This document shows, in pieces, positions 6,562 to 61,962 of a stretch of 64,000 nt of DNA (within the stretch, counting starts at the first letter, position 1; every line of letters starts with the position of its first letter). The stretch covers positions 10,023,859-10,087,858 of the forward strand of contig NC_134036.1 in the NCBI RefSeq assembly GCF_964204645.1, in the 5' to 3' direction. A program made the translations under genes and the position numbers. A model generated the notes under the pieces. That model ran no database searches and was not told the origin of the DNA. It saw only the letters and a program-made list of their open reading frames with translations. Origin of the DNA: Tubulanus polymorphus (Eukaryota; Animalia; Nemertea).

Positions 6562-6730
6562 GGGGTCATTCATTTATTACGTACGCATAAAATTTGATTA
6601 TTTCAACCCCCTCTCCCTCTGTACGCAAAATCGGCCATTTTTTCATGTACATTAAGCATCATAGTACGTAATTGCCCTGACCCCTCCCCCTCCCCATCCC
6701 CTAATGCGTACGTAATAAATGAATGATCCC
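6562..6730. mobile_element. PIF/Harbinger-type MITE
   Basis: 27-bp TIR GGGrTCATTCATTTATTACGTACGCAT (1 mismatch); 3-bp TSD ACA at 6559-6561 and 6731-6733. Confidence 0.8.
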
Positions 6731-10856: not shown

Positions 10857-11456
10857 GGAGTCGTAATCGTTTAACGGAGTCGCAATCGTTAAACGGAGTC
10901 GTAGTCGCTGAACGGAAGCGTAATCATTGAACGGAGTCGTAGTCGCTGAACGGAAGCGTAATCATTGAACGGAGTCGTAGTCGCTGAACGGAAGCGTAAT
11001 CGTTGAACGGTGTCGTAGTCGCTGAATGGAGTCGTAATCGTTTAACGGAGTCGCAATCGTTAAACGGAGTCGTAATTGTTAAACGAATCGTACTCGTTAA
11101 ACGAGTCGTAGTCGCTGAATGGAGTCGTTATCGTTTAACGGAGTCGCAATCGTTAAATGGAGTCGTAGTCGCTGAATGGAAGCGTAATCGTTGAACGGAG
11201 TCGTAGTCGCTGAATGGAGTCGTAATCGTTGAACGGAGTCGTAGTCGCTGAACGGAGTTGTAGTCGCTGAACGGAGTCGTAATCGCTGAACGGAGTCGTA
11301 ATCGTTGAACGGAGTCGTAATCGTTGAACGGAGTCGTAGTCGCTGAACGGAGTCATAATCGTTGAACGGAGTCGTAGTCGCTGAACGGAGTCGTAATCGT
11401 TGAACGGAGTCGTAATCGTTTACGAAGTTGTAATCGTCAAACCTAGTCGTAATCAT
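10857..11456. repeat. 19-bp CpG-rich minisatellite (CGGAGTCGTAaTCGtTGAA), about 30 units
   Basis: Tandem units with alternating variants, flanked by the direct repeat GAAGGGATTCAGTAAT.GTTGAACACAGGGGTAAGT. Confidence 0.9.
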
Positions 11457-12996: not shown

Positions 12997-15560
12997 GCTC
13001 TAGGAGAAAATCAGCGAAAAGTGACATGCAGTTGGCAGATGAAAGCAATGAAACACTTTTAACCGCAACCCCTTCTTCAAATGATCACCTGACATCAACG
13101 CCATCATCGTCAACACTTTCATCACCCATAGAGTCTATAATCCCCCCTGTTAGTACGCCAATTTTAAAAAGTTCGGAAAAATACATACTAGAAGATAAAA
13201 TCGAATGTTTGAGAGCAGAAATGAAAAGACTACAGGATATATTGAAAAACCCGAATCTCCTAATGATTACGTCAGGCACTATCAATGATGAAACATTTGT
13301 GGTACAAGAATTAAACAGCGCTAATCAACGAAAAAGTTCATTTATATGTACAAAATTAGATATACCAACTGTGGGGTCATCAATTGCCAGTCGACAGACA
13401 CTTGAGAAGAGAGCTTCTAAATTATTTTCTGTAGCGAACATCATTTCAGCCAAGTCCAAATCAACAATCGATACAGCTGCTACAGTTAGTTCGTTGTTTA
13501 ATCAGAATCAGGAGCTTAAAGAATCAATTTTTTCAAAATCTCCGGAGTTGTGTAAACCTCAGAAGCTATCTCCTGAAGAGTCTGTCGACTTGAGGCTTAG
13601 TGCTCGATTGACAATGAGTCAATATATTTCTATTGACTCAATCCTTAAAAACAAAGGTATCTATGTATTTCCCTCGGTCAATAAAATACGAGAAGAGATA
13701 AAGATTCGCAATGAGGATTTCACGAATAATTTATTCGTTGGTGAAAAGTTAATGGAGGTAAATAGTAGATCTCATGAGTTTCAAAGTGCCCCATTTGATG
13801 TAGTCACTAATCTGAAACAAGCGGTTGAACTTACCCTAAAAAAAATCTCGGCAAGTAATGCATTCGTGGATGATCCTAATTTCCATAATGAGATTTGGAT
13901 GAAAGTCGGCATTGATATAGGTGGGGGTTCAACAAAAATGGTGTATTCAATACTCAATAATAAACTATGTAATAGTCCCGACCAGACACAGCTAATGGGG
14001 TACTTTGAAGCCATAGATTCAAACGAAAACATTGAATCTATTTTTGGGCGATTTCGTGAACAGTTGAATGATCTCAATCACGTAGCATTTAATGGCGATG
14101 AAAAGTCTCTACGCATCTTTCACATAGGGGACATACATTATCTTTGTCAAAATTTAGGGCATCAGGGATCTACTGCCTCGTTTCCATGTTTATTTTGTAA
14201 GGTCAGGCTTGAAATTCTCAGGAAAAAGGATGCCACCCCCCATAATTCTAGTCATTCACCCTTTGAAATGCGAACGTTAACTCACTATCATGAAAATGCT
14301 GCAAAAGCAAAAATGTCTTCGCCTGGGCCAGACACTTTCAGTGTAAATGATAATATGATTTTCCCCCCTATAGATATGGATCATGTCGTACCGCCGCCTT
14401 TACATATTTCACTGGGCTTAGGCCTTATGTTTTTCAACATGTTGGAATCAAAATGTAAAGTCCTAGACCGTGGAAATTTATCTGAAAGAGATGCTACCCT
14501 AGACGAAAAGTGGCAAAAAGCATCAGAGGATGTGATCAAATTAGAGAGAGAAATAACTTCAGTGAGTGAGAACATCAATGAAAAAAATGATATTTTGGAG
14601 CTATTAAAAAATTCGAAAAAGAGAGGTCGCTGTGCCATAAGCTGCACAGCAAAAATTTGTATTATACGATGTATACAGAAGCCTGAGCCAAACCATTTTG
14701 TTGAATGCGCTGAATGCGAAATGCCCTATCATTTTCAGTGTGTAGGTGAGCAGAAAAATTTCAAGTGTATTGAATGTTTAACCGGGAAGGTCGAATCTGC
14801 CGAAAAAATCATAAAACTAAAATCTGATGAAATTCGGCATCTTAAGTCAAAATTGACTGAACTAAAAACCTCCCTTGCTGTGGCGAAATCACTTCTAAAT
14901 GAAATACATAAAGAAATTGATGCTACAATGGGTCCTATCACACGAAGTTTAAACAAAACATTGAAATCAATTGGTGTTGACAGACAAGCATATTACAGCC
15001 AGAGCTTTGTAGGAAACCATGTATATAAAATGATCCAAATCAATGAGAAAGTCAATAATCCTGCAAAGCTCTGTGCTGTGTTAAAAAAATATCCAGCAAT
15101 TCAAACACTTTTTTTAACACTGTTTGAAAAATTTCATGCGATGTATGTAATTTACAATGCAAGTAGATTTTTGTCGAATAGCGAAATTGACATGCTTGAA
15201 CGTTTATGTCTTGATTTTGGATCATGGTTTCCAGAAAATTTTCCGGAAGCTAATATAACGCCGAAATTACATGTTCTTATATATCATGTTGTGCCATTCA
15301 TTCGAATGTGGGGTACATTGGGTCTTTTTAGCGAGCAAGCTCTTGAATCGAAGCATGCGTTGATAAATAGAGATGTTCGCACGTACTGAACCATTCGTGA
15401 TAAAGTTCGCCGCACTAAATTAATTTTCCTCAACCAGGCACTCTATGCAACGAAGTCGATTAAACGTATTCCGATAACGCGTAAATGCCAATGTGGTTCC
15501 TTCTTGAGAAGCGTTAATGATAAACGCATATGCGATGGTTGTAAAAGTACATCGAACTGA
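12997..15560 (+). pseudogene. RAG1-like DDE transposase with an internal PHD-like finger; premature stop at 15387-15389
   Basis: KVGIDIGGG, IGD..L...GHQG.....PCLFC, PPPLH, ITPKLH and SEQALESKH motifs. Likely splice acceptor TCTAACAG ending at 12996. The frame continues past the TGA to ...RKCQCG...ICDGCKSTSN*. Confidence 0.8.
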
Positions 15561-17625
15561 TTTTCGAACATGCTGATCTCCAGAAACCTGATTCTGAAAG
15601 AGGAGATTTGTTAATAAACCTTTGTACATAAATAACTGCTGGATGTGGTTTAAGAGCAGCTTGTGAGCATGTTCAATTTTGTGAATATTATTTTGATGCA
15701 AGGCATTGAATGAAAATTATTATACAGCAAATTAAATATAAGTGAAATCAACTCACCAGTAATCTTATTCAATCATAACAAACATGTTGAAAATAACTTC
15801 ATAAATTCTTTCAAACCTGAAAGTCAAAATAGTGTTATTGATCATTTACACATATTCTTATCCACGAGCAAGGCGTACATGTTTGTATTATTAGAACGGT
15901 GAATAAATAAAATGACCTTACTTATGAATAACTTCATCTGTCACCCTTGAAAAACATTCTTTCAGTGTTTAATGATCTGTAATGTATAATAAATCAGAAA
16001 TGTAATGGAAGCTTTATGAATATTTTATAGTGCCGGTGATAAATAATAACTTTTTCTTTAAATTAGCATTAATCACTTATTTTTACACGCATGCTCGGCT
16101 TAAATGCCTCTTTGACGAGGGAGAAAAATGTATCCAAGCTAATTACAAACTATTTGAATCAAAAAGCTAATTTTGGATTTGTAATTAAGTAGCGGTTCCC
16201 TTTTCCCCAGAGTCAATTACCTCAGTTTATGGCATGCCTCGGACTTAGTTTGACCCAGGACAATTGTCTCAGATTGTTGCATGCCCCGATCAACTTTTAC
16301 CCCAGACAAGAGATGATTTATTGCCTTGGATCTTCGCATGCCCAGATGGAATGGATTGCCTTGGATTATTGTGTGCTTTCTAGGCCCACCTGATGACTCC
16401 ACGTTTGGTTGAAGGTCACGATCGCGCGCGATAGATTTGTTCGCGGATACCAAAAAATATCGATTTCCTAAAAGGTCACGATGAGTGCGCGAAGCTTATT
16501 CTTAGTATTGCTCTAGAGATGTTCGTGAATTGTTCAAATCACGATATCCAACGTACGAAACTAGTTCGGCACTTTATGCAACTAAGTCGAATAAGCGTAG
16601 TCCAATTGTCCGTAAATGCCAGTGCGGATTTTTTTCAAAAATATCGTCTCCGATACGAGGCGGTAAATCTGAAATAACAAGATTTTTTAATAAATAATAC
16701 ACTAAAAAGTCATAAAAATTATTTACAGATATTGTTCTACTTGCGAGCAGGGCTTTCATGCTTGTATTGTATGAGAATGGCGATCGATTAAACTTACTTG
16801 AATAGCTTTGTCTGTCCCCTTTGAAAAAACTTTGCTGTCTTAAAAAAACCTAGGCCTATAATATATAATATGATAGGGCTTACGAAATGTACTGGAGGCT
16901 TTAGGCTTAGATTGACTATAATCGCACGGCGTCGATTGCCACAGATTATCAGATTATCGCCCACTCTCTAGGCCTACCTGACAATATTACAACTCTTAGT
17001 ACAATTCATTGTGGTCACAACCCATCCCTGCTTCGACTGCCCCGAAAAAAACAAATAACTGAGGGAATTTACTAGCCTCGGACGGGTCAAATTATCTGAC
17101 AGTTTGCACTTCAATATACATGAAATAGGCCCATCGATGGAGCTAGGCCTGAAGGTGAATGCGGTTAACTGTTGATACGAATCTTTTTTTCATTATGGGT
17201 TGACATCTTAACAGAATTACTTCAATATAGGCCGCGGTCTGAGTTAAGAATTTGAAGTGGAAATATTTCCGGGTTTCAGCGAACCCGGAAGTAAGTAAAC
17301 AAATTCAGTCGTATTTTTACATTTATTGGGTCAACATGCAGCAAACATACACCATTTAACGGCCACAAACGTAATTCTTTACTTACATTAACAAATGACA
17401 CCCATTAAAGCAACTGGAATGGTTTCAAAGGCAACCAATTCATGATACACTCCGATATTTTAACTATCGTGTCTTTGCGAGGATGACTCCACGTCTTGCT
17501 GAAGATCGTGATCGCGCGCAATAGATTTGTTCGCGGCCACCGAATAATATTGATTTCCTTAAAGGTCACAACAATTACGCGAAACTTCAAGGTCTCTTAT
17601 TCTTAGCGTTGTCTGTACGTACGTG

Positions 17626-19611
17626 TGGTACGAAATTAACTTTCTTAGCTTGTAAATTGCAATCTTCATGAGCAGTTCCACGATATTTTGAATTTAAATG
17701 ATCATGATCTCTAACTTTTTTATCAAATGAATAAAAACGTTTTTCACAATAACAACAATGAGTTGCATAATTAAAATCAATTTCATCTTCTTTTGTCATA
17801 ACTATTCTTTTATTTTTGTTTAATAATTTTGCAAAATCACTTTCTAATTCAATCATTTTATCACAAAAATCATTAACTACATTTTCACCTCTAAAAGAAA
17901 TATATTGACTTTCATATAATTCAGGATAATTTGATTTTATGTAAATTCCATAAGCAGCAGCTCTTTGATGAACTTTTTTAATTGTATTTATAATTGGTGG
18001 GTCTTGAATTATATCTTCATTTAATTCATTTCCTTTATCCATTGATTTTAATAATTGCTTTTTGTTATATATTTCTTTTCTATCTTGATCAGTTAATTCT
18101 TTATTCAACGATTCAAAATCCCCATAAATTACAAATGGAACAATATTTTTAAATTTATGATTAGTAAATTTCAATTCATAATCTTTTTCTGTTGGCATTA
18201 TTAATTTACAAAAATCTTTATTATCACATAATTCTTTATGTTTTAATAATGTATTCTCAGTCATAAATTTAGATAAACATTTTCTACATAGATAAATTTT
18301 ACGATGATGATCACTTTCTGTTCTAAAGAATAAATCAATTTGTTTTAACCACATATAATGTTCATTTTCATCTTTTTTGTAATATAACAAATCTATAACA
18401 TTTTCATCATCATAATATTCTGTTAAATATAAAGCTTCCAATGTATAATCTTTAATATTTTCACCTTTTGTCTTTGGTAATTGCATTAATTCAAATACAT
18501 TTATTTTTAAATTATTAACTTTTTCTATTTTAGGAATCATTTTTATAGTTACTGGATATTGATCAATTTTATATAATGTTTCATATTTCCGGTAATTTGT
18601 TATTCTAAAACTATGTGTCATATCTTCTGTTGGGTGTAAGCAACTAATAATTGACCATAGATAACATTTATTATCTTCATTTTGAACATTTATTACTGCT
18701 TTTGTTGTAAATGGTAATTTAATATAAGAAGATGCTTTAATATCCTTTTCTGTTGTAAAGTTTGAATCATTTTTAAACATTTTATTACTTTTTGATGTTT
18801 TATTTCTTTTTGTATTATAAACATTTAAATCTAAATATATAATTTCATTCAATGTTAAGCCAGAACCCTCAAAATATCTTTCTTCAATATGACGTTTAAA
18901 TTCATTAAATATTTTTTCTAACTTCTCTTTTATTTGTGTTTTTGAAATTATTTCTTCAGAGTGTGTTTGAATATTATAATTCATTTTTTCTTCTGACTTT
19001 ATAAAACTTACTTTCCCAGAGATACTAATTTTTGGATATTCAACATCTGTTATCAAATCTAGTATTTTTTCTATTATTTCATTAAATTTACTATAATCTT
19101 CTATTGTTGTTCCTTTAAAAAATCTAAATATAATAGCTGCAGGACCAATATTACTATGTAATGTTTCTGAGATTTCAATTGTATCTTTTATTTCTAGTGA
19201 ATCAATATAATTTCTAACATTTTCCATGTAAGGTTTATTTGAAATGGATTTAGTTTTTGCATTTGGTTTTTTTACTTTTTGAGGTTTATCGTCAAAATAA
19301 TCTTTTCCTAAAACATTATTACTCAAATTTTGGCGGTGTTTTTGTGATTCGAGATGTCTGTTATAATTCCTTTTTACTATAAATTCATTACAAACTTCAC
19401 ATTTTATTTCATCCACATTCATATTTTCTAATCTTTCTTTTCTTTCATTGGAATTTTCTGGAGTTTCAAAATCTATTACATTTTTTATATGATTTGCAGT
19501 TTTTTCATGTCGTGTTTTATGAGATGTATCAATGTATTTTTTACAATATTGGCAATAATATTGATTTTTATTAACATTATTGTTTTCTGGCTGGTGTTCA
19601 TTCTCTCCTAT
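17626..19611 (-). pseudogene. pPolB N-terminal segment (zinc fingers, terminal-protein/vOTU-like region, ExoI, EndoVII-like HNH insert)
   Basis: SYIKLP...NEDNKCYLW...HYMWLK, YGDFES and CCYC...VRDHDH...YRGTAH..CN. The frame extends 63 codons above the track ATG to an ATA at 19611. Confidence 0.9.
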
Positions 19612-19696
19612 TTATTAGGAAAAAAAATTACTTGTGGTGATGAGTGGTGTCTCGCCCTCTCGCCCTCTGGTATGAAACCCATATCTTCCAATTACT

Positions 19697-20204
19697 GATT
19701 TAACAAGACCAAATGTGTCACCAAGTGCATCCAAATAACTACCCGTTGCGTAATATCGGAGAGAAACCTTCACTTGTAACTCAGCAGAAAGTGCTTTGGA
19801 ACGTTGTGTATCATACGTTATATCATCTCGAATTAAATCTATTATTCGTGTGATATTTTCCGAACTAAAGCTATATTTCTGTCTCACTTCATTTTCTAAA
19901 TAATCATTAATTGCAAATTTAACTGTTTCGTGATATCGATAGCGGCGTGGGTGTCTATAAATTCGTTCTTGATAGATATCATCATAAAAAATGGCAGCCA
20001 TTTTGATAATTTATCCTGGTGATAGTGTTGCTATCACCACGTCGGAGGTGTGTTAACTTTATCACGGGGATAGCTGATTTTATCCCGGTGATAAAGTTAA
20101 CACAGGTTTGAAAAACACACTATCACAGTGATAAAAATATTTAACACCGGGATAGCGATTTATCACCGGGATAGGGCTTATCACCGCTTTGAAAAACGCA
20201 GCCC
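19697..20204 (-). mobile_element. PIF/Harbinger transposon 5' end with a truncated HARBI1-like transposase (19697-20001)
   Basis: ALSAELQVKVSLRYYATGSY motif, GGGCTGCGTTTTTCAAAGC terminus and TATCACCGGGATA subterminal repeats; cut by the Polinton terminus. Confidence 0.75.
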
Positions 20205-21499: not shown

Positions 21500-21544
21500 T
21501 TTTTTTACCAAATATCTAGAATGTAGAATAAAACTAACTTGAAG

Positions 21545-23915
21545 CGGTTCCTGAACTTCGCTGAAAAAGCTGAAACACTGAAAAGCTGAAACGCTGAAAT
21601 AAAAACGCTGAAATTTCAGGGAATTTCCGAAAAACGCCGAAATTTCAGGGAATTCCCGAAAAACGCTGAAATCGTGCTAGGTACCGACAATACACGTTTT
21701 GAAATGTTTTCCGGGCCGGTGTCCGCTGACGAGTCCTGAACCGTGTTTTATGCTCTACCTTCGGTTACAGAGACATGCCCTAAGGTCGTCGTCATGATCG
21801 ACTTGATCGATTGCGGATTGCGTGGATTGTTAGATGTGTTTTTTGCCATAGTTTTATGTGCATATACCGGTACGATCTAACAATGAAGTTATCACTTCAT
21901 TTGAATAAATTCTTAATCACAGTAATATTAATTCACAATATTTTTTCTTATGTTTGGTGATTTCTTGCAACTTATCATTGCCAAGTCTCATACAAGTAGT
22001 AGCTGAATGAAAGTACAGTTAGGCTGAACCTGATAACCCAAATTAAGTGCTAGCATGGAACTAATGATTATTTTGATTCTATTTTCGGTGTCATTGAAAT
22101 TCGTTAATAAAGGTTCAACCGTCATAGTATACTGTACTTAGCATTGCTACAATTGGGTGCCATATTTCTACAATTTCTACAAGGAGGAAGGAATCTTTAA
22201 GTGTCTTTGTTCCCGGGTAGGGTACGGGGTAAAACCTGGTTTACTTTCTCTTTCGACTTGCCGGAGACTACTATCTGCAATGTATTGCATGCTTTGATGT
22301 GTCTGGCCTATAGGAGTCGAACGATATTTTTTTCCCATACACAGGCATGGCTTTAGTGTAGATGAAGGCTAGGCACTGCACATTGTGGATTGACTGGAAC
22401 TCTTAACTCACAAAATTAAACGAGTCAACAAGAAAGATCCAATAATTGGACATTTGTCTAACTATATTATTTAACAGCTTGAAATAATACATAACACATT
22501 CTGCAAGAGTATACAAAGGAAATCAGTTCTTACATTATATCAGAATCAATAGTTCGCTTAACTAGAATTCTGGTTCCATTGCTTCATATTCTAATGAAAT
22601 CCACTAGTATACCTTAGAATATCGCTTAGCTTAAGACTAAAAATTTGGTACCAGGAAACAGGGAAGAAAAGTGGGTGTACTGTACATCCGCAATTGACTT
22701 ATTTCTCTCTGGTTGAATCAAGTTATTATTGAAATAGCATTCGAATAGCCATTTTATTTTTAAAAATTGTGTCGTTCAGCTATCCTGCTGCAAATTTCGC
22801 AGTTGAAGTTTACTGGTGCCATCTGATTTCTCAGTATCTCAAAAAATTTGCACATTCTAAGCCTGAATCTAAAAATAGAAAAAGGTGCATTTTAGTCGGA
22901 TATAAAAGAATAATGGCTAATACACCCTGGACTATATAGCCTATGGGGTGGGCTTAGTTTGAAAGCACTGAGGTCCGAGAGAACAGCACTTAGTAAATAA
23001 ATACTGAAATTAAACTTACAAAACACCCAGTACTTGAGATGATGTACTTGACAAGAAGTGTCACCAGCTAAGCAAATCAACTTTGTCTATGACTCCTCCT
23101 TTTATAGATTCAGTAGTAGTCTAAAAATAAGAATCGGTACATTTTTCTAACAGTTGGTATGTCATTTCTTCAAAAAAACTAATTATTATCACGCCACAGC
23201 AAATAAATTATTCACAGTTGTTGAATGGTTAGCCCGATTTAGATTAATTGGTTGACGCTAATCAGTATGACCCATACGTAGGGGCCTACTGCATGCCATT
23301 GGTGTCAATCCATTCCATTCCATTCCACAGTGAATTAAAAAGAAATTTAGTTAGATCCCTTTTGTCCAAAAGCTGCATCATTTATATAACTAGCTGTCAA
23401 ATTTAATTTACCTCCTTCAGAGAATACCATAGTGACATAGTCCGTCGCCCATCAACGTGTTGACAAAAGAAAAGTTGCTCCATGTTTTATACATGAACGT
23501 TCAAATAAGATATTTTGCGTCTTGCAGGGAATATTGAGCATAGTGTTTAAGTTGGCTTGCACGGTTTGTGAATGGGTTTTCCTCATTATGCTGCCTGTAT
23601 GCATTAAAAATCCGGATTTCAAGCGAATTAATATGTCCAACAAGTGGCCCTCTAAAAGTATACTCCACACATACTGTCCATGCGTGTCTCTGTAACCGAA
23701 GGTAGAGACTAAAACACGGTTCAGGACTCGGCAGCGGACACCGGCCCGGAAAATATTTCAAAACGTGTATTGTTGGTACCTAGCACGATTTCAGCGTTTT
23801 TCGGGAATTCCCTGAAATTTCAGCGTTTTTCGGAAATTCCCTGAAATTTCAGCGTTTTTATTTCAGCGTTTCAGCGTTTCAGTGATTCAGCTTTTTCAGC
23901 GAAGTTCAGGAACCG
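21545..23915. mobile_element. Non-autonomous Mutator-like (MULE) element
   Basis: About 230-bp TIRs starting CGGTTCCTGAACTTCGCTGAAAAAGCTG; perfect 9-bp TSD AACTTGAAG (21536-21544 and 23916-23924). Confidence 0.88.
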
Positions 23916-24339
23916 AACTTGAAGTTGTAGTTGTCAAATATCAATTACAGCACTTAAACATGTTTAACGTTTCCCGACGCCTTAATAACAACAAAAAACA
24001 GTACTTACATTTATAACTGTAAACTCCTAATTGTGTTACTAGAGAAAAATCTTATACGTTCTATATATTCCGTCTGTTCAGTTCGGCTGTTGTAATGCGA
24101 CTGCGCTCAATATACCCAGGCACTGTCTGTCTAAGCAACAGATGTTCCTTTGTGATGTAATTGATTAATCCTTTTCAACTGAAATAGCACATTCGATCAA
24201 TATTCAAATGAGGTACATCCCATTCAACTGAATATAAAATGTGGCACAGATGTTAGTATAATTGCATATAGGCAGTTATAATGGATAACTATATACACAC
24301 ATACACGAGCGACTCGAGTAGAGTTCTTATTATAAACGC

Positions 24340-25074: not shown

Positions 25075-25220
25075 AGTAATAGGGAATATGGGGGTTCATA
25101 TCAAAGGTTGAAGGGGCGGGCGAGTAAAAAATTAAAAGTAAATTCGAGTGTGCGAGAATTTATTTTTTTATGAGCTCGACCGTTCGACCTTTGGTATGAA
25201 CCCCCATATTCCCTATTACT
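25075..25220. repeat. Terminal foldback palindrome of a Polinton derivative
   Basis: AGTAATAGGGAATATGGGGGTTCATA...TATGAACCCCCATATTCCCTATTACT. Confidence 0.85.
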
Positions 25221-26481: not shown

Positions 26482-27429
26482 TTATTTGAATGAATTTCTA
26501 CAGCAGATTTTCATACAGAAATATTCACGAATTTCTCGTCCAAGTAAAAGATATATGTAGAAGTTTACCACATAGTTACTCATAAAGAATTGTGTCAAAA
26601 TATCATATAGAAATTCTTTCTGTTCCGTAAGGATTGGTAAAAATACAACAACAGTGGTTGGAAGTGTGAATATTGCAAATGCGAGTGAAACTGTTACAAG
26701 CATCATTGTTGTACGTTTCGATTTTGTAGTTTTCTTATCAGACGAAAGCATTTTTGTACCTCTGAATAACTGAATAATTATGATAGAATTTGATATTAGA
26801 ATCAACGATAAAGGCAAAACAAAAGCGTAGACACCAAGTGGAGTAAGAAATTTCATTTGGACAATTAATTCATAGTAACATCCGAAAAATTGGTCGGAAA
26901 ATTGTATCGACAAAGTAGCGGGAAGTTGAACCAGTACAGTCACCGTAGTAATTATCAATATAGCAAATCTAGCGAATCTAGGCGTGCATATCAAACGAGA
27001 AGTGAACGGAAAGAGAACAACTGCCGCACGTTCTAGAGATATAGCTACCAATAACCAGGAACTGCTAGAATTGGCACCTGCCATCAATATTTCATATATC
27101 TTACAACTGATCAGTGAATTCATGATGAATATAAGACTAGTGTTTAGATTCAAGAGAACTAACTGTAAAACAGGCATCAGTGTAAAATGTATACAGAACA
27201 GGAAATCACAGACTGATAAAATGACAAGATAGTTAGCGTAAGATAAACTGCGGAATCTGCGACTTGTCATTATTAGAAAAGTAGCTGAATTTCCAAAGAC
27301 TCCAAACAGAAACACGATAGGCAGAATGACCAACGACACAGTACGGTAAGTTCCAGACCTGTTCTCCACCGACATTAGAATGATGTAACTGCTATACGTT
27401 CGACCAATTCGTATCTTAGTTGAATTCAT
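26482..27429 (-). CDS. Class A (rhodopsin-like) GPCR, peptide-receptor-like, intronless host gene
   Basis: Seven hydrophobic segments with GN (TM1), LSVCD (TM2), SLER (TM3), the TM6 Pro and NFYIY (TM7). Confidence 0.88.
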   Translation of the reverse strand: MNSTKIRIGRTYSSYIILMSVENRSGTYRTVSLVILPIVFLFGVFGNSATFLIMTSRRFRSLSYANYLVILSVCDFLFCIHFTLMPVLQLVLLNLNTSLIFIMNSLISCKIYEILMAGANSSSSWLLVAISLERAAVVLFPFTSRLICTPRFARFAILIITTVTVLVQLPATLSIQFSDQFFGCYYELIVQMKFLTPLGVYAFVLPLSLILISNSIIIIQLFRGTKMLSSDKKTTKSKRTTMMLVTVSLAFAIFTLPTTVVVFLPILTEQKEFLYDILTQFFMSNYVVNFYIYLLLGREIREYFCMKICCRNSFK

Positions 27430-29362: not shown

Positions 29363-30622
29363 ACATTTATCAATTTATTCTTTATATTTTAAGTTTTTTT
29401 TTAGAAAAAAGTCACGAATGATTCATACTTATTCAGTGCTTTTGAGCCATAGCTTCCGTTGCCATAGCAAAAACCTCGTCGGAAAACCCCAACGCTATTT
29501 CTTCTTTTTTTCTTTCAGCATCGTCAACGATTGAACGAACAGACTCTGGCAATTCATCCAAGGCTCTTTCCAAATTTAGAAGATAATATTCTATTAATAT
29601 TGTGAGTGTGGCAACTCTTTTTCCGTAGCTTACTCACGTCTTCCTATTTCGCCTCAGCTTCAGCCAACAGCGACCGCTTTCTTTGTGAGGTTTACCTTGC
29701 TCTACTACCTTTCTTAGAAGTGACTGATATTTTTTTTTCTGTTTTTTTTTACTCCTTCACTTTCACAAAGTGGGACTGGGAGGATGTAGTACAGACTAAC
29801 TCAAAAAACTCACGTGTTCATTTTTTCCTCTCGATTTCTTCAAATTCTAGTATTCAACTTTTTCTAACACCACTATCAACACTTCGTTCCCGGGTTTCGG
29901 CTCCATAAATTTGTCTTAAACTCCATCCTGGTCCCTTCGTCCTCGCTTGCCAGGGGTCCGGTATCACTCCCGAACTCGCTTCCACCCGCCCCTGGCCCCA
30001 TGAAGCGTGATTTCATTGCTGGCGCTGTTGCGCATGACGTCATATATCGATTTGCTAAATACTTCCTTGTTCGGTAAAACGTTCGCTGATTGGTCCATTC
30101 AACGGACAAACCAACAGAAGCCTTATTTAGTTTGTTACAAGCGCTGTGATTGGTACAACCGGATTCAGGTCGGCAAGTTACGACTCCAGCGACTCGAGAG
30201 GTCAAGGGGTTCGGAGAACAGCTTTAGCGTAGTGGGTTCGAATCCCTTGACGGGTGAGGATTGGTCGCTTAAAAGTAATAGGGGTAATGGGCTTTCAGGC
30301 CAAAGGTCGAACGGTCGAGCTCGTAAAAAATGAAAAAACATAAAAATAATAACAATTTCTACTTGAATTACTCGCAAAACTCATAAAAATGAAAAATAAA
30401 TTCTCACACGCTCGAATTTATTTTTCATTTTATGAGTTTCACTCCTAATTCAAGTAGAAATTGTAATTATTTTTATGTTTTTCATTTTTACTCACCCACC
30501 CGTTCAACCTTTAACCCGAAAGCCCATTACCCCTATTACTCTTAAAATATTCATATATATATGAATAACATTTAAATCATTGAACTTCTAAAATCAATTT
30601 TAATAAAAAATATAGTATTAAA

Positions 30623-30859
30623 ATGGAAGCAAATAAGTACTACTGCCCAACATGTAAGATAAATATAGATAAGTCTCAAAAAGCAAGACACAATAAAACT
30701 AAAACACATTTAGAGAATAAATTGAAACTAGAATATTTACAGTTATATTCAGAACAGTTAACAAAAGGAAAGAAATTTATTGAATTATGGAATAATGATC
30801 CAAATAATGAACAATATGTTGAGGATCCGATGTTTATACTAGAACATGATTCTATTTGA
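30623..30859 (+). pseudogene. Deletion chimera: pPolB N-terminal zinc finger fused to the HNH-gene C-terminus
   Basis: MEANKYYC...KLKLEY matches the ORF at 60460; LQLY..Q..K.K.F.ELWN matches ORF 24340-24522. Confidence 0.75.
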
Positions 30860-31350: not shown

Positions 31351-32079
31351 ATGTCGTGTGTATCAAGAAGTACTCTTGATTCTCAGAGGACAACCGAAAT
31401 GGAAGATGAACCAACCGAAATGGAAGATGAACCAACCGAAATGGGTACTGAAGTAAAAGAATCTTTCGATATAGAAGATGAAACGTTAGAAGAAGTTAAA
31501 AAACATTTATATTACCATCAAGAAATGACATTAATTTTAGAAAAAATAATAGAAAACCAGCAATCAAGCGTAACATCATTACCGAAAAGACCAACAACCA
31601 ATGTAGAAATATTGTTAAGACTAAAAGGAACAAAAACTAAAAAGAAAATGAGCGGAAATGAGTTAAATAAGTTTTTAAAATCAAAATTATCAAATGAAAA
31701 AGATGTAAGTTTTAAAGAAATAGAAGGTGTAACATCATTTAATGAAATAACTGTTTTATTGAAAAAAAATTATAGAACCTTGTTATTTAAAAAAGCAAAG
31801 CATTTATGGGATTATATCATTTTCGGGGATTGTTTAAATAGGGGATTTTTAATGTTTAATAAACAAACTGCAGGGATTTCTTGGACTTCTTGGGTTAAAA
31901 AATATATAGGTATTAGTGCTGGGTATGAAAGAAAATTAAGAAGTGTAGGGAGATTAATTACATATAAAAGATTCCAATTTTTAAGTTTGTCATTTTCTGA
32001 TATAGTAAAATACTTAAACGATATTGAAAAAATGTTTGACAATGATCCAGAAATTGAAAAGTTCTGGTTGGAATTATAA
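31351..32079 (+). CDS. Polinton-associated hypothetical protein
   Basis: Intact ORF with a paralog at 20768-21499; W..WV...IGISAGYERKLR motif. Confidence 0.7.
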   Translation: MSCVSRSTLDSQRTTEMEDEPTEMEDEPTEMGTEVKESFDIEDETLEEVKKHLYYHQEMTLILEKIIENQQSSVTSLPKRPTTNVEILLRLKGTKTKKKMSGNELNKFLKSKLSNEKDVSFKEIEGVTSFNEITVLLKKNYRTLLFKKAKHLWDYIIFGDCLNRGFLMFNKQTAGISWTSWVKKYIGISAGYERKLRSVGRLITYKRFQFLSLSFSDIVKYLNDIEKMFDNDPEIEKFWLEL

Positions 32080-32170: not shown

Positions 32171-32517
32171 TTTTTATGTCGGTCGTTTCTATTTTACAGA
32201 ATGAATATATAATTATGATTAGCGCATGCGCATTGATCAAAAACGCTCCTATAAGAGCGGTTTTGCCTAGTGTACATGCGTTTGAATTTTCTATGTTCAG
32301 TTGTTTCTATTTTACAGAATGAATATATAATTATGATTAGCGCATGCGCATTGATCAAAAACGCTCCTATAAGAGCGGTTTTGCTTAGTGCGAACACGTT
32401 TAGATATTTTATGTCGGTCGTTTCTATTTTACAGAATTTACAGAATGAATATATAATTATGATTAACGCATGCGCATTAAGCAAAAGCGCTCCTATAAGA
32501 GCGGTTTTGCCCAGTGG
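32171..32517. repeat. Tandem repeat, about 119 bp x3
   Basis: Each unit carries (G/A)CGCATGCGCA and AAAA.CGCTCCTATAAGAGCGGTTTT. Confidence 0.85.
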
Positions 32518-32649
32518 TATTATTTAGATATCAAGGAATCGAAACAACTTATCAAAAGCAGCGAGGAATGAAAAAGGATGACGTTGATCGAAGAAATGGA
32601 AGAGGATTATAAAATATTAACCAATTTAGTAAAAAAATATGTATAATAA

Positions 32650-32964
32650 ATGGAACCAGAACAACCACAAACTATCAATATTACAAATAACACTGGCGTT
32701 ATAAACATATATTACAAGAAATGTTCTAAATGTGAATTAGATAAATCATTAACAGAATTTAGTAAGCGTAAGATTAGCAAAGATGGTTTTCAATATTGTT
32801 GTAAAACTTGTACTAAACTATATACCAAACAATATCGAGAAGATAATATAGAACATTATAATTATTATATGACCAAATATATGAGAGAAAGATATCAAAC
32901 AGATCTTAATTTTAGATTGAAACAATGCTTAAGGTCTAGATTAACACAATTATTCAACCAATAA
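32650..32964 (+). pseudogene. 3'-truncated copy of the zinc-finger/HNH endonuclease gene
   Basis: Nearly identical to the 24994 ORF up to ...RLTQLFN, then diverges at about 32958. Confidence 0.85.
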
Positions 32965-33054
32965 GGGTAAAAAAAATATTTTAAAGCGTAAGGTTTCAGC
33001 GAACTCTAACTCTTTTTGAATTTTAACCTATTTTAATAAAAATTTGATATATAA

Positions 33055-35223
33055 ATGTGCACAAGATTAATTAAAGTTCCCGCGAAAGACATGAGTAATA
33101 AATATATAAATTCAATATTATATTATTTAACTGTTAACAATAATTTAGCAGATATTTCAGGAGTAAATATAAATAAGTATTATAAATCTGAAAATAATGA
33201 ATTAATTGAAACATCAGATATATTTTGCGATAATATAATGCTATATAAAATCATGTTAGAAAAAGAAATTATAAAAGAAAATAGAACAACTTTTCTAAAC
33301 ATTAATCAGAGAAAGATAACACATTATGAAATTAAAGAATGTTTTAATCAAGGAGATATTATATTGGATAACTTAGCTATAAAAATTACACGTGTTTTAA
33401 CAATTCATGATGATAATTCAAAATCATATATATTAAGTAGAATTAATCAAGAATTAAAATTAACAGATTATATTGCTGTATTAAAAATTTCATTATGCAA
33501 TCAAAATTTAAATGAATTAATACAGAAAATGGATAATATTGAAAAATTATTAAATGAAAAAAATTACAATATATTAGATGTAGATGTGACACAAGATTTT
33601 AAAGGATCATTTAATTCAGATGAAATAAAATCAATGTTCGAAAATAGAAAATATAAAGTTCTAAAAGAATTTTCCAATAGTTGTGTTTCAGCATTACATA
33701 AGGATGATAAAATAAAGATCTATAATAAAACAGCATGTCAATTCAAATCTCCTGGTGTAAATATAAATTTCGGTTCAAATTTAATGAGTTACATAAATTG
33801 CTATCAAGAGAGGTTAAAAGAATCATTTGAAAAATCAATTGAAACAGGATTGATTAGAATTGAAATAACAAGTATTTCATTTAAAAGAGGATTAAAAGTG
33901 ATGGAAAAAATAAAACAATACTTAAAAAAAGAAAATATTTACTATTCACCTACATATTTACAACTTAAATCATTATTTGATGAGGTTCAACAGACCGTAT
34001 GTATTTATGATTTGATTGAAAAATGCTTTTATTTCTGTTATTATGGTGATTTATTAGCAAGGAAATTTATAGGATATAAATCTAGGATAAGTAAAAATAT
34101 TGAAGAGTCCTCCTTTTTACTTATTTTATCAATGTTTACAATTAAGAATATCCCATGTTTATACCTAACAATTAATCAAAATGATGATAAATCAGAATTC
34201 ATTATTGAAGCAAAAAAATATATTAAAACTGAAGGAGCAACTGTTATATCTTCAACTAATTCAATGTTTACAGTATCGAATAAATTTATATTTAGATTTA
34301 AATTACGTGAAACAGGAATTAGTTTTACAACTTTAAAAAAGAGATACAATATAAAATCTAAACCTTTTTATAAATTAGATGCACTTGATATTGAAGAAGA
34401 TTTTGATTTAAAATTATTATCTAAAAGTGAATTTAAAAAGTTAGAAGAAATGAAAGAACTTAAACAATTACAAGAAGATATAGATGAAAATAGAAATAAA
34501 ATTTGTAATGAATTAAAGCAACAATTAGATATTGATAATGAATTATTTGAGACAGAATTTAAAAAACTTGAAATAATTCCTGAAGTAAAATTAAATGATT
34601 ATACTCCTAAAATATCTGGAATTGACAATAATACAATTTTTGAAATTAGAGGTTTTTCAACTCAATGTAAATGTATAACAGATCTTTATTTCAGTTATAT
34701 TTTAACAGATCAAGGCTTTTATGAAACTACTACTGATTTAAGAGAATTATTGATAAAAACATTACAATTAGACATATTAAATAATAATTATTTTGAATTG
34801 TCTTCGATAGAAAAAATCATCAAAAAGTTAAAAATAGGCGTTCATAGCCCTGATAGACACTTTATTTCATCAAAATTAGAAAAACCTATTTTCCAAGTAA
34901 AGAAGATAACACACGATCATTTTGAAATAATTGATAAAATGGATTTTGAATTGATGAAAAAATATATTGAATATTTAAAGATAAATTCTAATGATTTCAT
35001 AAATGTATGTGATATACGTAAAGAATCTGATTATTTAAGAAAAATGAAACTTAACAATATGAAAATTAAGCAATGCGAGCGTTTAGAACCATTGAAAGAT
35101 AATTCTGAATATAATATTGATTTCATTAATCCTAGATATTTTAGAAATAAATTGCGCCATCTAATTTTAATTCATAATGATGAAAATATTTACATATCAA
35201 ATGAATTTTTCGGTTGGTTCTAA
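33055..35223 (+). CDS. Rep_trans-like (pT181 RepC/inovirus pII-type) rolling-circle initiator-like protein, probably C-terminally truncated
   Basis: LDVDVTQD, KIKIYNK and LIRIEI occur in the order of the Rep_trans active-site motifs; 722-aa open frame. Confidence 0.55.
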   Translation: MCTRLIKVPAKDMSNKYINSILYYLTVNNNLADISGVNINKYYKSENNELIETSDIFCDNIMLYKIMLEKEIIKENRTTFLNINQRKITHYEIKECFNQGDIILDNLAIKITRVLTIHDDNSKSYILSRINQELKLTDYIAVLKISLCNQNLNELIQKMDNIEKLLNEKNYNILDVDVTQDFKGSFNSDEIKSMFENRKYKVLKEFSNSCVSALHKDDKIKIYNKTACQFKSPGVNINFGSNLMSYINCYQERLKESFEKSIETGLIRIEITSISFKRGLKVMEKIKQYLKKENIYYSPTYLQLKSLFDEVQQTVCIYDLIEKCFYFCYYGDLLARKFIGYKSRISKNIEESSFLLILSMFTIKNIPCLYLTINQNDDKSEFIIEAKKYIKTEGATVISSTNSMFTVSNKFIFRFKLRETGISFTTLKKRYNIKSKPFYKLDALDIEEDFDLKLLSKSEFKKLEEMKELKQLQEDIDENRNKICNELKQQLDIDNELFETEFKKLEIIPEVKLNDYTPKISGIDNNTIFEIRGFSTQCKCITDLYFSYILTDQGFYETTTDLRELLIKTLQLDILNNNYFELSSIEKIIKKLKIGVHSPDRHFISSKLEKPIFQVKKITHDHFEIIDKMDFELMKKYIEYLKINSNDFINVCDIRKESDYLRKMKLNNMKIKQCERLEPLKDNSEYNIDFINPRYFRNKLRHLILIHNDENIYISNEFFGWF

Positions 35224-37513
35224 CAGACGGCCTTCGTTAGGATGAAACATATTCGAAGTGCGTTGATTGCCGTGTTTTGCTACTATCCCAGCCAAGTCAC
35301 TTATTACAACAGTCGGCTGGTGCTTCATGGAAAGTATCATGTGTACGTGATCCCTCGGCCCTTCTCCACGAAGTAACACCTTAATACCGTAGGCCACTCG
35401 ATGTGGACATGTTACAGCAAGCCAACCACCTGACAATAAAAATAAAGTCATATTATTCGAACGAACTTTATATTTAAGTTCGGAGAAACAACGAACATTG
35501 ATCCTTACCTGATGCTCCCCATAGTTTAACTAACTTGTCATAGTACTATTGTTACCATAGACCTTGCTTTAAAGCATTTTAAGCATACTCGTTTTCGATC
35601 CGGTCTCTTTTATTCCGATGCTTCTGCATGCTTTCTGAATGTCTTGTACTGTAATAATAGCGCTTATTCCATCTTGCCATTGTAGGTAAGAATTATTTAG
35701 TCATAATCTAGGTCTGTTAACTCCTAACCACAGTGTCGTACATAAAATGTAATATCTGTTCGGTGGTTATCGTCAATTCATTGTCTTCATCATTGTTGTC
35801 GTCTTGGACATGCAAACAGTTGTATTTTTTGTACTCTGTATTTACAGCGGTATCACCGCTTCTACTTTTACGATCCATGGCGCCCAGTTACTAAAGTTTG
35901 GGGCTACTATCTTGTTCGCCATGCAACCTAAAATATGTACAAACGATTGCTGTAGCCACTATTTGAGATGAATGTGGCTACCTTCTAATGTTGAAAATGC
36001 TACCTTTGCTTGATTGATTGATTATATCAGTTTCCACTTGCGATTAAAACGAATCAATATTTACATCATCCGTGCAGTCGTCTGTTGGCTCTAATTCTGA
36101 AGCTGCAATAGAAAATAACGCGGATGAATGACGTCCGTTGGTAGAAACAAACATATAGAAACCTCACCATTGAGCCTGTTGGTTGAGTTTTATGTTCGAT
36201 GTTTCCTCTATGATTGACACCAAACGACCTACTGCTGTATGATTCTGAAATTATAAGACATGAAATTTCATGAACAATAGAATTAACAAAGTCATATTTG
36301 AACTTTACAGTGAGGTTGATACTTACCATCAAACCAGCTCGTAACCACAGACATAAACGAGTCGACAACAACAAACTGTCGTCGAAGATATGAATTCCCT
36401 CATCGTGCTCCTGATATCGAAACCAATGACCTCGTTGTCGTCATTGCCGAACGTATACTTCAATATCTTAAAAAAACAGTGTCATTGAACATTATATGAT
36501 TAGATAAGACAACATTTTAAATGCATGATTTTCGACTCAATTAAATAAATCCATTAAATAATTCAATCAAAATAACTTATGTGAATGGCAATAATATCGA
36601 CAATTTCCCCGCGAAACGTAAATCTGTGTTCGTGCAGTTCACATCCACATTTATGGCAACGATTTTTGCGAAGTCTAATCTGCGTGATTTGGCTTGGAGA
36701 TTGTACATGTCCCGGGATAACCGGGATTCGCTTGTAATTGCGTAAATAATGTGACAATTTGTCCAAAAGTTGACCCTGTGGCGGGTATGAATTGTCGATG
36801 GAATGGTCAGCGTCTTGGTGTCCAGATTATTGGATTTCACGTCGGTGAATGCCAGATTTGATTGCAATGAAAACCACTTTGCAATAGACTTGTGGATACA
36901 GCCTTTCCTGATGAGCATTTACAATTTAATTGTAATGCTTTCCGATCGAACGAAATGACACATCTACCATGCCGACTCCATGATCGTATTTCTCCGCAAA
37001 ATATTGACATATGGATAAAGCGTTCACTTCTCATCCATACACTGATCAATGGAGCCTTTTTTGCAATGCCAACTGTGAACGCACTGGACAAGCATTTTTG
37101 CTATCTATTCCAATAATTTATCTATGTACAAGTGACTCTAAACTGTCGTTTTTTAACTGTGTATTTACATATGGAAGGGCGTGAGTACCACTTTTGACGT
37201 GTGGACTCTGGTATGCATTATTGCCACCTCGTGCAGACGCTTCTGATGCCGAGATGCACGTGTCGTTTTCGCAACTGAACATTGCAGGCGGCGATGCCCT
37301 TGCAATCACATGGATGGGGTATCCCGCTCCGTGCATAGAATTCGCGATCAAAAATATTCCCCGATTGGGGTCGACACATATCCCGGGGTTGTGTCTGTTG
37401 GAATCAATAATTGCAGGTGAATGCTGTGCCATATGCTTCTTTATATTTTTTCTATACCTAATGGTAGCATTGCAATGTGTAAATTTCACATTGTCCCATT
37501 TAGGGTTCGGCAT
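35197..37513 (-). pseudogene. KDZ/Zisupton-type (HMGXB3-like) transposase relic, multi-exon
   Basis: SGGW...CPH.V.Y..K..LR.E.PRD....LS.KH.P.V...D motif, Cys-rich upstream exons, and GT/AG intron signals near 35431 and 35508. Confidence 0.6.
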
Positions 37514-45384: not shown

Positions 45385-47825
45385 ATGTCTCTTGGAGATA
45401 TCGAATATAAGTACAAATTGAATTTAGTTACACGTAGTTTCAGTACATCTGCTGATGTTGTACTTAGCTTACAAATGGACTATGGTCTAATCAAAGAATT
45501 TCTAAACTTCAAGCAAAAATACAAAGATGCTAGCTATGTTTTATTATTGAATGTAGCCCTTCCAAACTTTGTTCAGTTGCACCATACTGAACGTCTGAAT
45601 CAAAGAAATCTGTTCCTCTGTAAAAAACAAGTACCAGAACTTGTCCGGTAGAAGGTACATGGAACTGAATGCTTAAGTGTGGTCAATGGGCATATATGCC
45701 CATGAACTAGTTGATGTTGGGGGGCAAGTTCAGAATTGTAAAATTTTGACCTCTGAAAACTGTGACCTACACAGAAGGATTGATCTACTTTTGAAATCAA
45801 TCATTGAATATCAAAACAGTACCCACTCCTTGTCTACCAAATGTCAGGAACAGCAAATAGAAATTGAAAGATTGAGCTCATCATTAAGTAATTATCTAGA
45901 CAAGGTTTATAACAATCCTATCAAGACAAATAGTGGGAAATTATTTCATGATCTTAGTGATTGGCAACAAAAGCGTAGACTTCATTCGCTACATGGGGAA
46001 ATTGAAAGGGCTCTATGGTTTATGGAAACATATGGCTTGGAAATTGACTCCTTGACTGTAACTAGTGGAACTAACGAGCATAATATCAATTTTAAATCTG
46101 ACAACAGCAGGAACATAGGTAGTTATGAGAAATTGTCAGACTCCGTGAAGGACAAATTGAAAAATATTTTGTATGTGCTAGACTCATTTTGTATCAGCGA
46201 TACTGCCTACCATGAATTGACCGTTCTTGATTCAGAATTACCAAAGAAGTCACTTATAGTTCAATGTAGGGAATCTCTGTCAGATATATATTCCATACAT
46301 AGGGCTGTTGGGGGAATACCAGGAGCTTACATAAGTTTCCATGAGCAAGTAGCTCTTCTGGTTAAGAATGACCCTTCTCTTCAGTCTGCTGAGAAAATTG
46401 TCATAAAATTGCGTGGTGATGGAGCAAACATGAGTCGTGTTAGTAGTTTCCTAACTATGTCACTTGCCATTCTGAAAGAAGGGGCAAACACAGGTGTACC
46501 TATTCCTATTGCAATTCTTAACCAGTCTGAATTGTATGATTCTATCAAGAATGGTCTCAAGCCACTCATTGAAGAAATCAATGAAATATTGATTCAAAAG
46601 AAAATGGCTATTAATGGTCTATCATATGAGGTTGAAATTGTATTAGGTGGCGATATGAAATTTTTACAACTGTTGTGTGGTTTAAAAGGCAGTACAGCCA
46701 ATCAAAGTTGTCCATGGTGCAAAGTGCACAAAGACAACAGACATGAGTGTAATCATAATTGGGATCATTTTCATCAAGATCCTCTTGTCAGAACCTATGA
46801 TAATTTAGTGAATGATGCCCTTGAATCCAAAAACGGGGTAGACCATCTACATATATTAAAGATAGATCCAGGAAACATTGTTATTGATGAGCTTCATCTA
46901 TTACTAAGAATATTTGATGTATTATTGCGTAATATCATCACTGATGTTAAGGATCTTGATGACTTTGCCAGACTTAGCCAGCTAGATACTGCTAATCAAC
47001 CACTAATAGGAGATAAACAACAAAATCTTTGTAAACTGATAAACTCATGTGGTGTGACTTTCAGGATATGGGAAGTCAGAGATCCATTAACACATAAAGG
47101 TACTGGCAAACTTGATTGGACATCTGTTCAAGGACCCGATGTAAAAACCATTATGACACTTCTACCTCAGATGTTACAGGGGTCAAATGTCATGCATGCA
47201 CAGACAAAACATGATGTATTACAACTGTGGATTAATTTCTTTGATTTGTACAAATATTTGTCTGATGATACACATGTACCAGAACTATTGGTTTTCTTTA
47301 AAAATGTGAAAAATTGGATCACTGATTTTCTCAGTCTTGGTTCTCAAAGGAAGGGATACAAGAAGGCCAATATCACACCCTATATGCATGCGCTTCTTTT
47401 CGATGTACCTTTCTTTTTGGACAAATTTGGTCCGCTCAAAAGGTATACAGGACAAGGGATAGAAAAGTTGAATGCGATTATCAAAAGGTACACATGGCTA
47501 AGACCTGTACGGCTGATTCAACTAAGGAGGTATTAACGGTCCTGAAAAGAATAGAACATTTAAAGGACTCTGGCCATGAAAGAAAGAAAAGGGCATATAA
47601 GAAAACTGATCAAATTACTGGTTGTGGGAAAAGCACTCCCGGGCTCAAAGAAAAAAGCGTAGAATACTGCAGGAGATACAGGAAAATTGTGTTCCATGTG
47701 ATCCTGTACCTGAAAGTGTTGAGGGATTAAGGTCTGATCTATCGATGCGTAGAACCTATGAACCCTTGAATAAATTATTCTTGATGAAAAGAGAGTTGTT
47801 ATTAAAGCCTAGCAATTCAAAATGA
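45385..47825 (+). pseudogene. Second RAG1/Transib-related DDE transposase, frameshifted at both ends (core 45677-47536)
   Basis: KLRGDG, GGDMKFL...G......CPWC, IDELHLLLRI, WTS..G, ITPYMH and GQGIEK motifs. Confidence 0.78.
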
Positions 47826-59974: not shown

Positions 59975-61962
59975 AGTAATAGGGGTAATGGGCTTTCAAG
60001 CCAAAGGTCGAACGGTCGAGCTCATTAAAAAACAAAACATTAAAAGTAATTAAAAACTATAATATATTTTCATAACCGTGTGTATTTTATATTAAAAACT
60101 AAATATTTATTCTAAGATATCAATAATTTAAAAAGCATATTGTATTAAATCAATTGGTCGCTCCACTTCGCTACCGCTCCGCTCCGCGACCAATTGATTT
60201 ATTTACAATACACAAATTCATATAATCAAATATATTCAAATAATAATAATTATTCTATTGTTCAACTGAAATACACACGGTTATGAAAATATATTATAGT
60301 TTTAAATTACTTTTAATATTTGTTATTAATGAACTCGACCATTCAACCTTTAACCTGAAAGCCCATTACCCCTATTACTCTTAAAATAATCATATAAATG
60401 AATAACATTTAAATCATTGAACTTCTAAAATCAATTTTAATAAAAATTTTAGTATTAAAATGGAAGCAAATAAGTACTACTGTCCAACATGTAATATCAA
60501 TATAGATAAATCCCAAAAAGCAAGACACAATAAAACTAAAACACATTCAGAGAATAAATTGAAACTAGAATATAAAGATGATATATTAGAAACTAAATTA
60601 GAAGAATTAAAGAATGAAAAAGAAACACACAAATGTGATACATGTAATCAATCATTCAGTGATAAAAGATATTATAAAGAACATTTAAAATCTATAAGTC
60701 ATATTAGAAATAAGAATAATGATATTTTAGGTGAAGATTATTTTGATAAAGATAATGATAAGAAACAGAAGACAATTAAAAGCATAAAAAATAAATTAAA
60801 CAATAAAAGACCATACATGGAAGATGTAAGAAATTATATTAATTCATTAGATAATAAAAAAGATATAGAAATAACCGAAGCATTTAAAAGTGATATTGGT
60901 CCAGCTGCTATTGAGTTTAAATTTCATAAAGGTAAAACATTAGAAGAAAATAAAAAACATTTAGAAAATATGAAAGAAATAATAAAAATAATAACTGATG
61001 TTGAATATCCTAAAATTAGTATATCAGTAAAGTTTATAAAATCTGAAGATAAACCAATATATAATATAAATTCTCATTCACAACATATTATATCTAAACA
61101 ACATATAGATGATAAATTAGATAAATGTTATAATGAAGTAAAAACTAAAATAGAAGAGAAATATTTTGAAGGATCTGGTTTAATATTTGAAATAATATTT
61201 ATGACTTTACATGTTTATAACACAAAATATAATAAGTTAACTAAATCAAAACCAATTGATGAAAATAATGTATCATATTATAAAGATGATAGTATAAATG
61301 GAACAAGTTATATTAAACTACCATTTAAAACTAATGCAAAAAAAACTAATGTACAAAATGAAGATGATAAATGTTATCTATGTGCTATAATAAGTTGTTT
61401 ACACCCAGTTGAAGATTATAAACAACATAGTTTTAGATTAACTCATTATAAACTATTTGAAAATAATTATAAGATAGATAAGTATCCTGTTATAATTAAA
61501 AACATCCCAAAAATAGAAAGAGATAATAATCTAAAAATAAATGTATTTGATTTAATTAAATTACCAAATACAAAAGGTAACAATATAAAACATTATACAT
61601 TAGAACCTTTATATCTATCAAAAGATTATGATTCAAATGATGTTATAGATATATTATATTATGAGAATCATTATATGTGGATTAAACAAATCGATTTATT
61701 TTTTAAATCAGAAAATGATCACCATAAAATATATCTTTGTAGAAAATGTTTACATAGATTCAGTAATGAAAGTACATTATTAAATCATAAACAATTATGT
61801 GAAAATCATGATTATTGTAAATTAGTTTTACCAAATGAAAAGGATAAAATATTAGAATTCAAAAAACATGATTACAAAAATAAAGTACCATTTGTAATAT
61901 ATGGAGATTTTGAATCATTAAATATAGAACTAACTGATCAAGATAGAAAAGAAATAGATCTT
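59975..61962 (+). mobile_element. Polinton B: 405-bp foldback terminus plus pPolB 5' part, truncated by Penelope
   Basis: AGTAATAGGGGTAATGGGCTTTC terminus (59975) with an inverted copy ending at 60379, followed by the pPolB ORF. Confidence 0.85.

Follow-up and report, generated by a model that had tools for sequence, protein, structure and literature searches.

The gene at 33055-35223 (+) of the window, by which we mean the whole 64,000-nt stretch of DNA analyzed here, likely points to a type of eukaryotic mobile DNA not described before, because its product is a predicted plasmid-type nickase and because it has a fixed DNA end of its own, set in an interrupted gene beside Polinton-like DNA. 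The explanation we favor, and think probable, is that the element is autonomous and one-ended and moves by a rolling circle, with a TBP-fold enzyme of its own that uses Y223 for nicking and with a helicase and polymerase supplied by the host. What the DNA and the reads show is the open reading frame with its conserved residues, a fixed 5' end beside flanks that vary, copies in decay, the gene interrupted here, and a 3' break. The window is repeat-rich and of animal type, with a rhodopsin-family GPCR, transposase-like ORFs, and pPolB fragments rich in AT. Searches of the open-access literature turned up no description of a Rep_trans element in eukaryotes.

The protein family and its predicted fold

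The ORF is open for 722 codons under the standard code, with its C-terminus cut short. The motifs on which the earlier note built its case are present, with DVDVTQD from 33577 (D175), KIYNK from 33715 (K221, placing Y223 at 33721), and RIE at 33856 (R268 and E270). The predicted catalytic domain is aa 51-296 (33205..33942, +) and contains D59, D177, D181, Y223, K225, R268, and E270, the first being a near-invariant Asp N-terminal to the DVDVTQD motif. A second beta-rich domain at aa ~312-391 (33988..34230, +) is indicated by secondary structure and a model pLDDT >85, and has no match by itself. The remainder (34423..35211, +) holds a long helix at aa 457-501 and a beta-rich C-terminal region, modeled with low confidence and conserved in many homologs, which we take to be possibly ssDNA-binding OB folds. 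Most aligned homologs extend ~37-48 residues beyond the N716 column and the window protein only 6; since the gene is broken at 35210-35212, the last 3 codons and the stop of the ORF are neighboring DNA. Among 35 of the variants listed from reads and contigs for close copies of the gene, 10 are silent and 1 is a stop, with no clear signal of purifying selection.

A word-based search finds 5 relatives of the protein, and a full HMMER scan finds 120 at E ≤ 0.001. Alignment A2 has 89 rows, made up of residues 1-440 of the window protein and 88 homologs, these being the ones of at least 300 aa, minus two fragments without the core, plus one 275-aa close relative. Counted only among rows having a residue at the column, conservation is 77/78 for D59, 82/83 for D177, 83/83 for D181, 89/89 for both Y223 and K225, 86/88 for R268, and 83/87 for E270, and a second, separate alignment is similar. 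The earlier note had made its proposal depend on conservation of the D/D/Y/E residues, and D177, D181, Y223, and E270 are indeed invariant or nearly so, as is D59, an Asp that the note does not mention. At no A2 column is an HUH pattern common to more than 1 of the 89 rows.

Family proteins are 540-1100 aa long with extra C-terminal domains, and most of the homologs looked up sit on contigs of 2-6 kb. Three of the 30 clusters looked up bear an organism name, in each case that of the mealybug Planococcus citri, as genes. Pfam has no match to any Rep family in 6 members of alignment A1 or in 49 homologs, PHROG has none either, and sequence searches of PDB, phages, and plasmids gave no informative match. 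Scans of viral contigs for the family returned 181 and 4 pattern matches, with 0 confirmed. The scan of prokaryote genomes returned one 1384-nt contig inside a bacterial bin, which is likely a stray eukaryotic contig (L017).

The active site of RepD is formed by D46, R140, D142, D146, Y191, R212, and E214 (PMC4797284, PMC13107129), and most of these residues are invariant in alignment A3. As described for the Rep_trans family PF02486 (pT181/pC221 RepC/RepD, RepSTK1, inovirus; PMC4797284, PMC5714925), a TBP-like curved sheet is likewise predicted and the order is the same, running from an N-terminal Asp through DxxxD and a YxK on a beta-strand to RxE, with agreement in local spacing; RepD R189 corresponds to K221 of the window protein. 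The match departs from those descriptions at two places. R140, strictly conserved in the RxD of motif I, is replaced by Asp, position 175 of A2 having D in 61/83 rows, S in 8, E in 5, and C in 4, and a conserved Lys near it, K144 (76/81 in A2), might be the stand-in. The Glu of motif III, given as YxKxxE (PMC5714925), is absent at YxK+3, where A2 position 228 has Q in 43 and C in 32 of 89 rows; a Glu at position 231 occurs in 57/89 rows and is absent from the window protein. The window family is also unlike Rep_trans in being eukaryotic, in its length and added domains, and in having no Pfam or profile match, and the window gene acts, unlike a plasmid, as an insertion whose end is fixed. Rep_trans enzymes seemed limited to bacteria before an archaeal family turned up (2026 paper, PMC13107129). 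That family, Rep-Arvir/RepSNJ2 (DUF7845) of archaeal viruses, also has its Rep_trans fold assigned by structure alone, and its D/E/Y positions correspond; it differs in being archaeal and fused to a MarR-like wHTH, and our likening of it to the window family goes by the description in that paper.

An earlier model built from 6 sequences had a pLDDT of 62 and weak matches to RepDE and TBP. The model from 89 rows has pLDDT 95.0 and pTM 0.92 and predicts a TBP-like crescent fold for the catalytic domain; all seven residues named above lie on its beta-strands, Y223 in strand 218-224. In Foldseek against PDB, RepDE (4CWC) is rank 1 with E = 8e-4 and prob 0.99, the sole match with E ≤ 0.001, although the TM-scores against it are low at 0.20/0.29. 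In BFVD, inovirus G2P is rank 3 (E = 1.2e-4) amid viral TBP-like proteins, and the best matches include viral TBP-like and early transcription factor proteins. VIA, over 48,161 chains, places aa 51-296 of the predicted model onto whole TBP cores with a middling Z of 7-7.9, and aligns RepDE with Z = 5.7, pairing residues 51-294 of the model with 39-237 of the chain (154 aligned, rmsd 5.1). RepDE is rank 38 in one VIA run, below TBPs and half-domain matches, and outside the best 50 in the other; among the best 50 rows of the former run, the whole domain is covered by TBPs (Z = 7.0-7.8) and RepDE only. Going by range ends only, D59 and E270 fall within ~1 residue of D46 and E214. By sequence profile, hhalign against 8 Rep_trans proteins is not significant (probability 0.2-1%; score 19.2 vs ≤17.6 in 30 shuffles), and within that non-significant alignment the register pairs Y223/K225 with Y191/K193 and R268/E270 with R212/E214. 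The match is thus a distant one.

That TBPs outscore RepDE in VIA, that the best BFVD matches include TBP-like proteins and early transcription factors of viruses, and that there is no significant sequence link to Rep_trans would suit some other TBP-fold enzyme or DNA-binding factor, one that does not nick and join and is carried passively by another mobile element. An invariant D..DxxxD..YxK..RxE in the Rep_trans order is hard to account for in that way, and there is no other transposase gene in the 98 nt from the fixed end to the ORF, so we regard it as highly improbable. That the protein works like a Rep_trans nickase is by inference very probable, and this call of a non-HUH nickase, already made in the earlier note, is borne out at the level of prediction by residue conservation and model fold. 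Because fold and residue order match, yet there is neither a Pfam match nor a significant profile match, we describe the protein as Rep_trans-like in its working; by the defining tests of PF02486, it is not a member.

The fixed end, the 3' break and the proposed movement

Reads and contigs from the runs X1, X2, X4, and X6 carry the same species label as the window. The fixed 5' terminal module of the element occupies 32957..33017 (+), with the 11-mer AATAAGGGTAA at 32960-32970. The boundary at 32956/32957 is sharp: 17 and 23 X6 reads are loose upstream of it (agreement 0.59 and 0.62), and 4 plus 2 X1 contigs likewise leave the window sequence there, the flanks being mixed in both samples. Two X1 contigs match only 32957-33017 and depart behind 33017, and the reads at the fixed end may come from non-autonomous partners having only the terminus in common.

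The sequence upstream of the boundary is a 5' fragment of an endonuclease VII/HNH-type gene (32650..32958, +), which matches ORF 24994-24467 (−) at 86% identity over 105 aa, the latter ORF being identified by PHROG 1035 endonuclease VII (E = 2.7e-14). The boundary of the Rep-like element cuts this gene after ~103 codons, and identity to the other endonuclease copy ends at ~32958-32964. At the joint, the listed flanks and the window have 2-3 letters (AC or AAC) in common, and one other listed flank resembles, by eye, part of the endonuclease gene family. Farther upstream lie three tandem repeats of 118-126 nt with a small hairpin (32179..32540, +) and a 242-aa ORF, ORF242 (31351..32079, +), with a second copy at 21499-20790 (−).

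At the 3' side there is a break at 35210..35212, where the Rep-like gene runs into part of an ORF on the minus strand (35197-35451) that is unrelated to it. Before 35210, 30 X6 reads and contigs of X1, X2, and X4 continue in other sequence, and past 35212 contigs of X1, X2, and X4 (three runs, two samples) continue in sequence missing from the window. The window copy is 3'-truncated, and may be inactive. The abutting minus-strand fragment has a weak Pfam match to Y1_Tnp (E = 0.007) and presumably resembles KDZ-associated transposase sequences. Elsewhere, X2 holds internally deleted and truncated copies of the element. Contig depth of gene against flank is 946 vs 244 in X1 and 83 vs 86 in X2, figures to be read as depth and not as copy number.

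The earlier note had considered both a native gene wired into a Polinton and a rolling-circle mobile element of eukaryotes that is as yet undescribed. Support for the mobile element comes from the constancy of the 5' end and from the decayed copies. For the window copy the native gene finds no support: the copy has its own end inside the endonuclease gene, and pPolB, endonuclease, and ORF242 are found in 0/16 homologous loci (contigs 1.2-9.5 kb).

If the enzyme acts as RepD does (PMC4797284, PMC5714925), D59, D177, and E270 would hold a divalent metal, and Y223 would nick one strand near the fixed end and remain on the 5' phosphate. A host polymerase and helicase would displace the strand, and a second transesterification would attach the displaced strand to target DNA, it seems behind an AC dinucleotide. 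The family has no recognized helicase domain: Pfam finds none of the helicase families in 49 homologs, and the search for a fused helicase form of 1988-5000 aa returned none, which is weak evidence. In the window, the element would have landed in the endonuclease gene of a Polinton-like element family.

The shared leader and the foldback heads

The leader of the Rep-like gene (33019..33057, +) is common to the Rep-like, pPolB, and endonuclease genes and apparently to another gene seen in reads only. Its likeness to the pPolB leader (60434-60462), spotted in the earlier note, is real: with ≤1 mismatch allowed, the 16-mer ATTTTAATAAAAATTT matches the window at 33030, at 60434, and nowhere else (0.14 matches expected), 0/100 shuffles reached 2 matches, and under a third-order Markov model of AT-rich islands 1/60 simulations had even one exact copy, all of these being post hoc tests with the pattern drawn from the matches. 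The leader type also stands before both endonuclease copies and, more loosely, before a zinc-finger ORF at 2331. Because of the X1 contigs that match the terminal module only, and because X6 reads have loose ends at the leader (16 before 33019 and 15 behind 33057), we suggest that it fronts another gene as well. The sharing suggests that the element had its origin in the company of foldback-headed pPolB/endonuclease elements, or exchanges modules with them.

There are three such heads in the window. The head at 30274..30545 begins a high-copy element whose left end is fixed at 30274, with 2058 X6 reads loose on the upstream side (agreement 0.33); behind the head come the leader and, at 30623-30736, a 5' fragment of pPolB. 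The head at 59975..60379 has behind it the leader and then 60460-61989, the N-terminal part of pPolB, and in the same way the head at 25075..25220 precedes the leader and, at 24994-24467 (−), the endonuclease VII/HNH gene. The three are one high-copy family, in which the same head fronts either pPolB or the endonuclease gene. Six other loci yielded no foldback of this sort. The window has 5 occurrences of the motif AATARGGGTAA where 0.13 are expected, in a post hoc test; one is at the Rep end, and the other 4, all of one family, are in foldback arms. The motif begins 3 nt after the fixed end at both 32957 and 30274. The Rep end and 2 of the 3 heads have a 10/11 match 3 nt from the fixed end, and a by-hand estimate, window choice allowed for, puts the chance of such an anchored match at ~1 in 1000. 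An extended homology of the Rep end to the foldback arms, which gave a good-looking alignment, was dropped on failing an unbiased test: in a scan of 6371 windows the arms are outside the best 15 places, and among 2000 shuffles 22-1566 score at least as high as observed. Within the arms, transitions run 28 to 1 in the direction that leaves G.T pairs on just the antisense strand, a sign of a single-stranded state, the copies being related and not independent.

These signals invite the reading that the protein serves as the nickase by which the foldback-headed pPolB/endonuclease elements replicate or resolve their termini, Rep-headed and pPolB-headed units being segments or partners of one system. 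The common leader, the anchored motif, the arm transitions, and the hairpins or ~1 kb TIRs that end three relatives (L004, L005, L007) speak for it. Against that, the motif test is post hoc and similarity beyond the 11-mer is not significant, the Rep end has no foldback, and pPolB is missing from all 16 loci mentioned above. Terminal-protein priming is also the normal mode for pPolB elements. Their integration is normally by INT (10.1101/2023.08.22.554363). We consider this reading unlikely, and prefer the autonomous one-ended element.

The surroundings contain other mobile and repeated DNA. A fragmented Polinton-like element at 1-19700 (−) has pPolB pieces at 19422-17587, 9606-8342, and ~5160-3650, split by insertions, and then small AT-rich genes with a leader consisting of a T-run plus TAAATAAATG, one of them weakly like DUF5901. 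Near 5013-4150 in its pPolB is an apparent insert, without a Pfam match, which we take to be intein-like. The C-terminal part of a second, GC-richer pPolB type lies at 62999-64000 (−) and has no tblastn match to the other pPolB pieces. An element with inverted ends of 234-245 nt, 95-96% identical, lies at 21536-23926 between the endonuclease gene and the ORF242 homolog, and a SINE-like, very high-copy short element at 29940-30261 stands directly before a foldback, with 4284 and 4881 X6 reads having loose ends at its borders. The rhodopsin-family GPCR (26482-27429, −) is intronless, and its X6 depth of ~900 at 85% likeness against 25-45 nearby suggests that it belongs to an expanded family. Of two long transposase-like ORFs, that at 13026-15389 matches DUF1280 and that at 45686-47536 has no Pfam family.

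Hairpin-ended relatives and known systems

The three relatives mentioned above are metagenome contigs with Rep homologs 24-26% identical to the window protein. L007 (9506 nt) has inverted ends of ~1.05 kb at 87% identity; L004 has ~460 nt of the L007 end at 97% and closes in a hairpin with a 22-bp stem; and L005 ends in a palindrome related to those ends. Features seen in this set (L007 at 1-9506, L004 at 5139-5661, L005 at 4252-4782) also include a branched terminal hairpin and a repeated ~250-nt module beside several genes. The Rep genes of L004 and L007 are oriented oppositely relative to the shared end, and their differences are A>G 190 and C>T 128 vs G>A 23 and T>C 23, an orientation-linked bias that fits strand displacement from nicked ends. 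The pattern supports a replication role for the family, and the contigs look like linear replicons, assembly artefacts being possible.

It might then be asked if the main role of the family is to initiate replication of free linear molecules with hairpin ends, similar to plasmids or viruses, with the window copy a passively integrated piece. The ends and substitution bias of these contigs are as expected for that, and most homologs are on short contigs; on the other side are the low identity of the three to the window protein, the possible artefacts, and, in the window species, the joining of a single precise end to several different flanks. That pattern is not what passive integration would produce, and we rate this account as quite improbable beside the one-ended element.

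In behavior the proposed element resembles Helitrons and Replitrons (PMC10288648), which are eukaryotic, are thought to move by rolling-circle strand transfer, and insert in an orientation-specific manner at short targets; Replitrons also lack a helicase. The eukaryotic rolling-circle transposons treated in that source all use HUH enzymes, whereas the window family has no conserved HUH and an unrelated fold. The Pif1 helicase fused in Helitrons was not found in the 49 homologs. With Polintons/Mavericks that have an HNH-bearing pPolB2 (10.1101/2023.08.22.554363) the likeness is in a neighboring pPolB with a weak endonuclease VII match (E = 0.036) and in the AT-rich leader that the window pPolB has in common with the Rep-like gene. 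The Polinton core genes listed there do not include Rep, and the window's foldback elements, which are fragments only, have no identified integrase, capsid, ATPase, paired TIR, or TSD.

A broader picture, which we hold to be rather doubtful, is that eukaryotes have a whole Rep_trans-driven class of replicons, appearing in animals as one-ended transposons and elsewhere as linear plasmids with hairpin ends, and that the nickase of this animal has a further substrate in the single-strand foldback heads of pPolB Polinton-like elements, replicating or moving them in place of protein priming or an integrase. What the window contributes is a read-mapped fixed end, an insertion into a Polinton-associated gene, and signals that the element has in common with the foldback elements, and the fixed end together with the candidate catalytic residues makes the proposed one-ended element directly testable. 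If it is real, the element would represent a new class of transposase, a TBP-fold tyrosine nickase missed by Pfam-based annotation, and Rep_trans-type enzymes would extend to the third domain of life.
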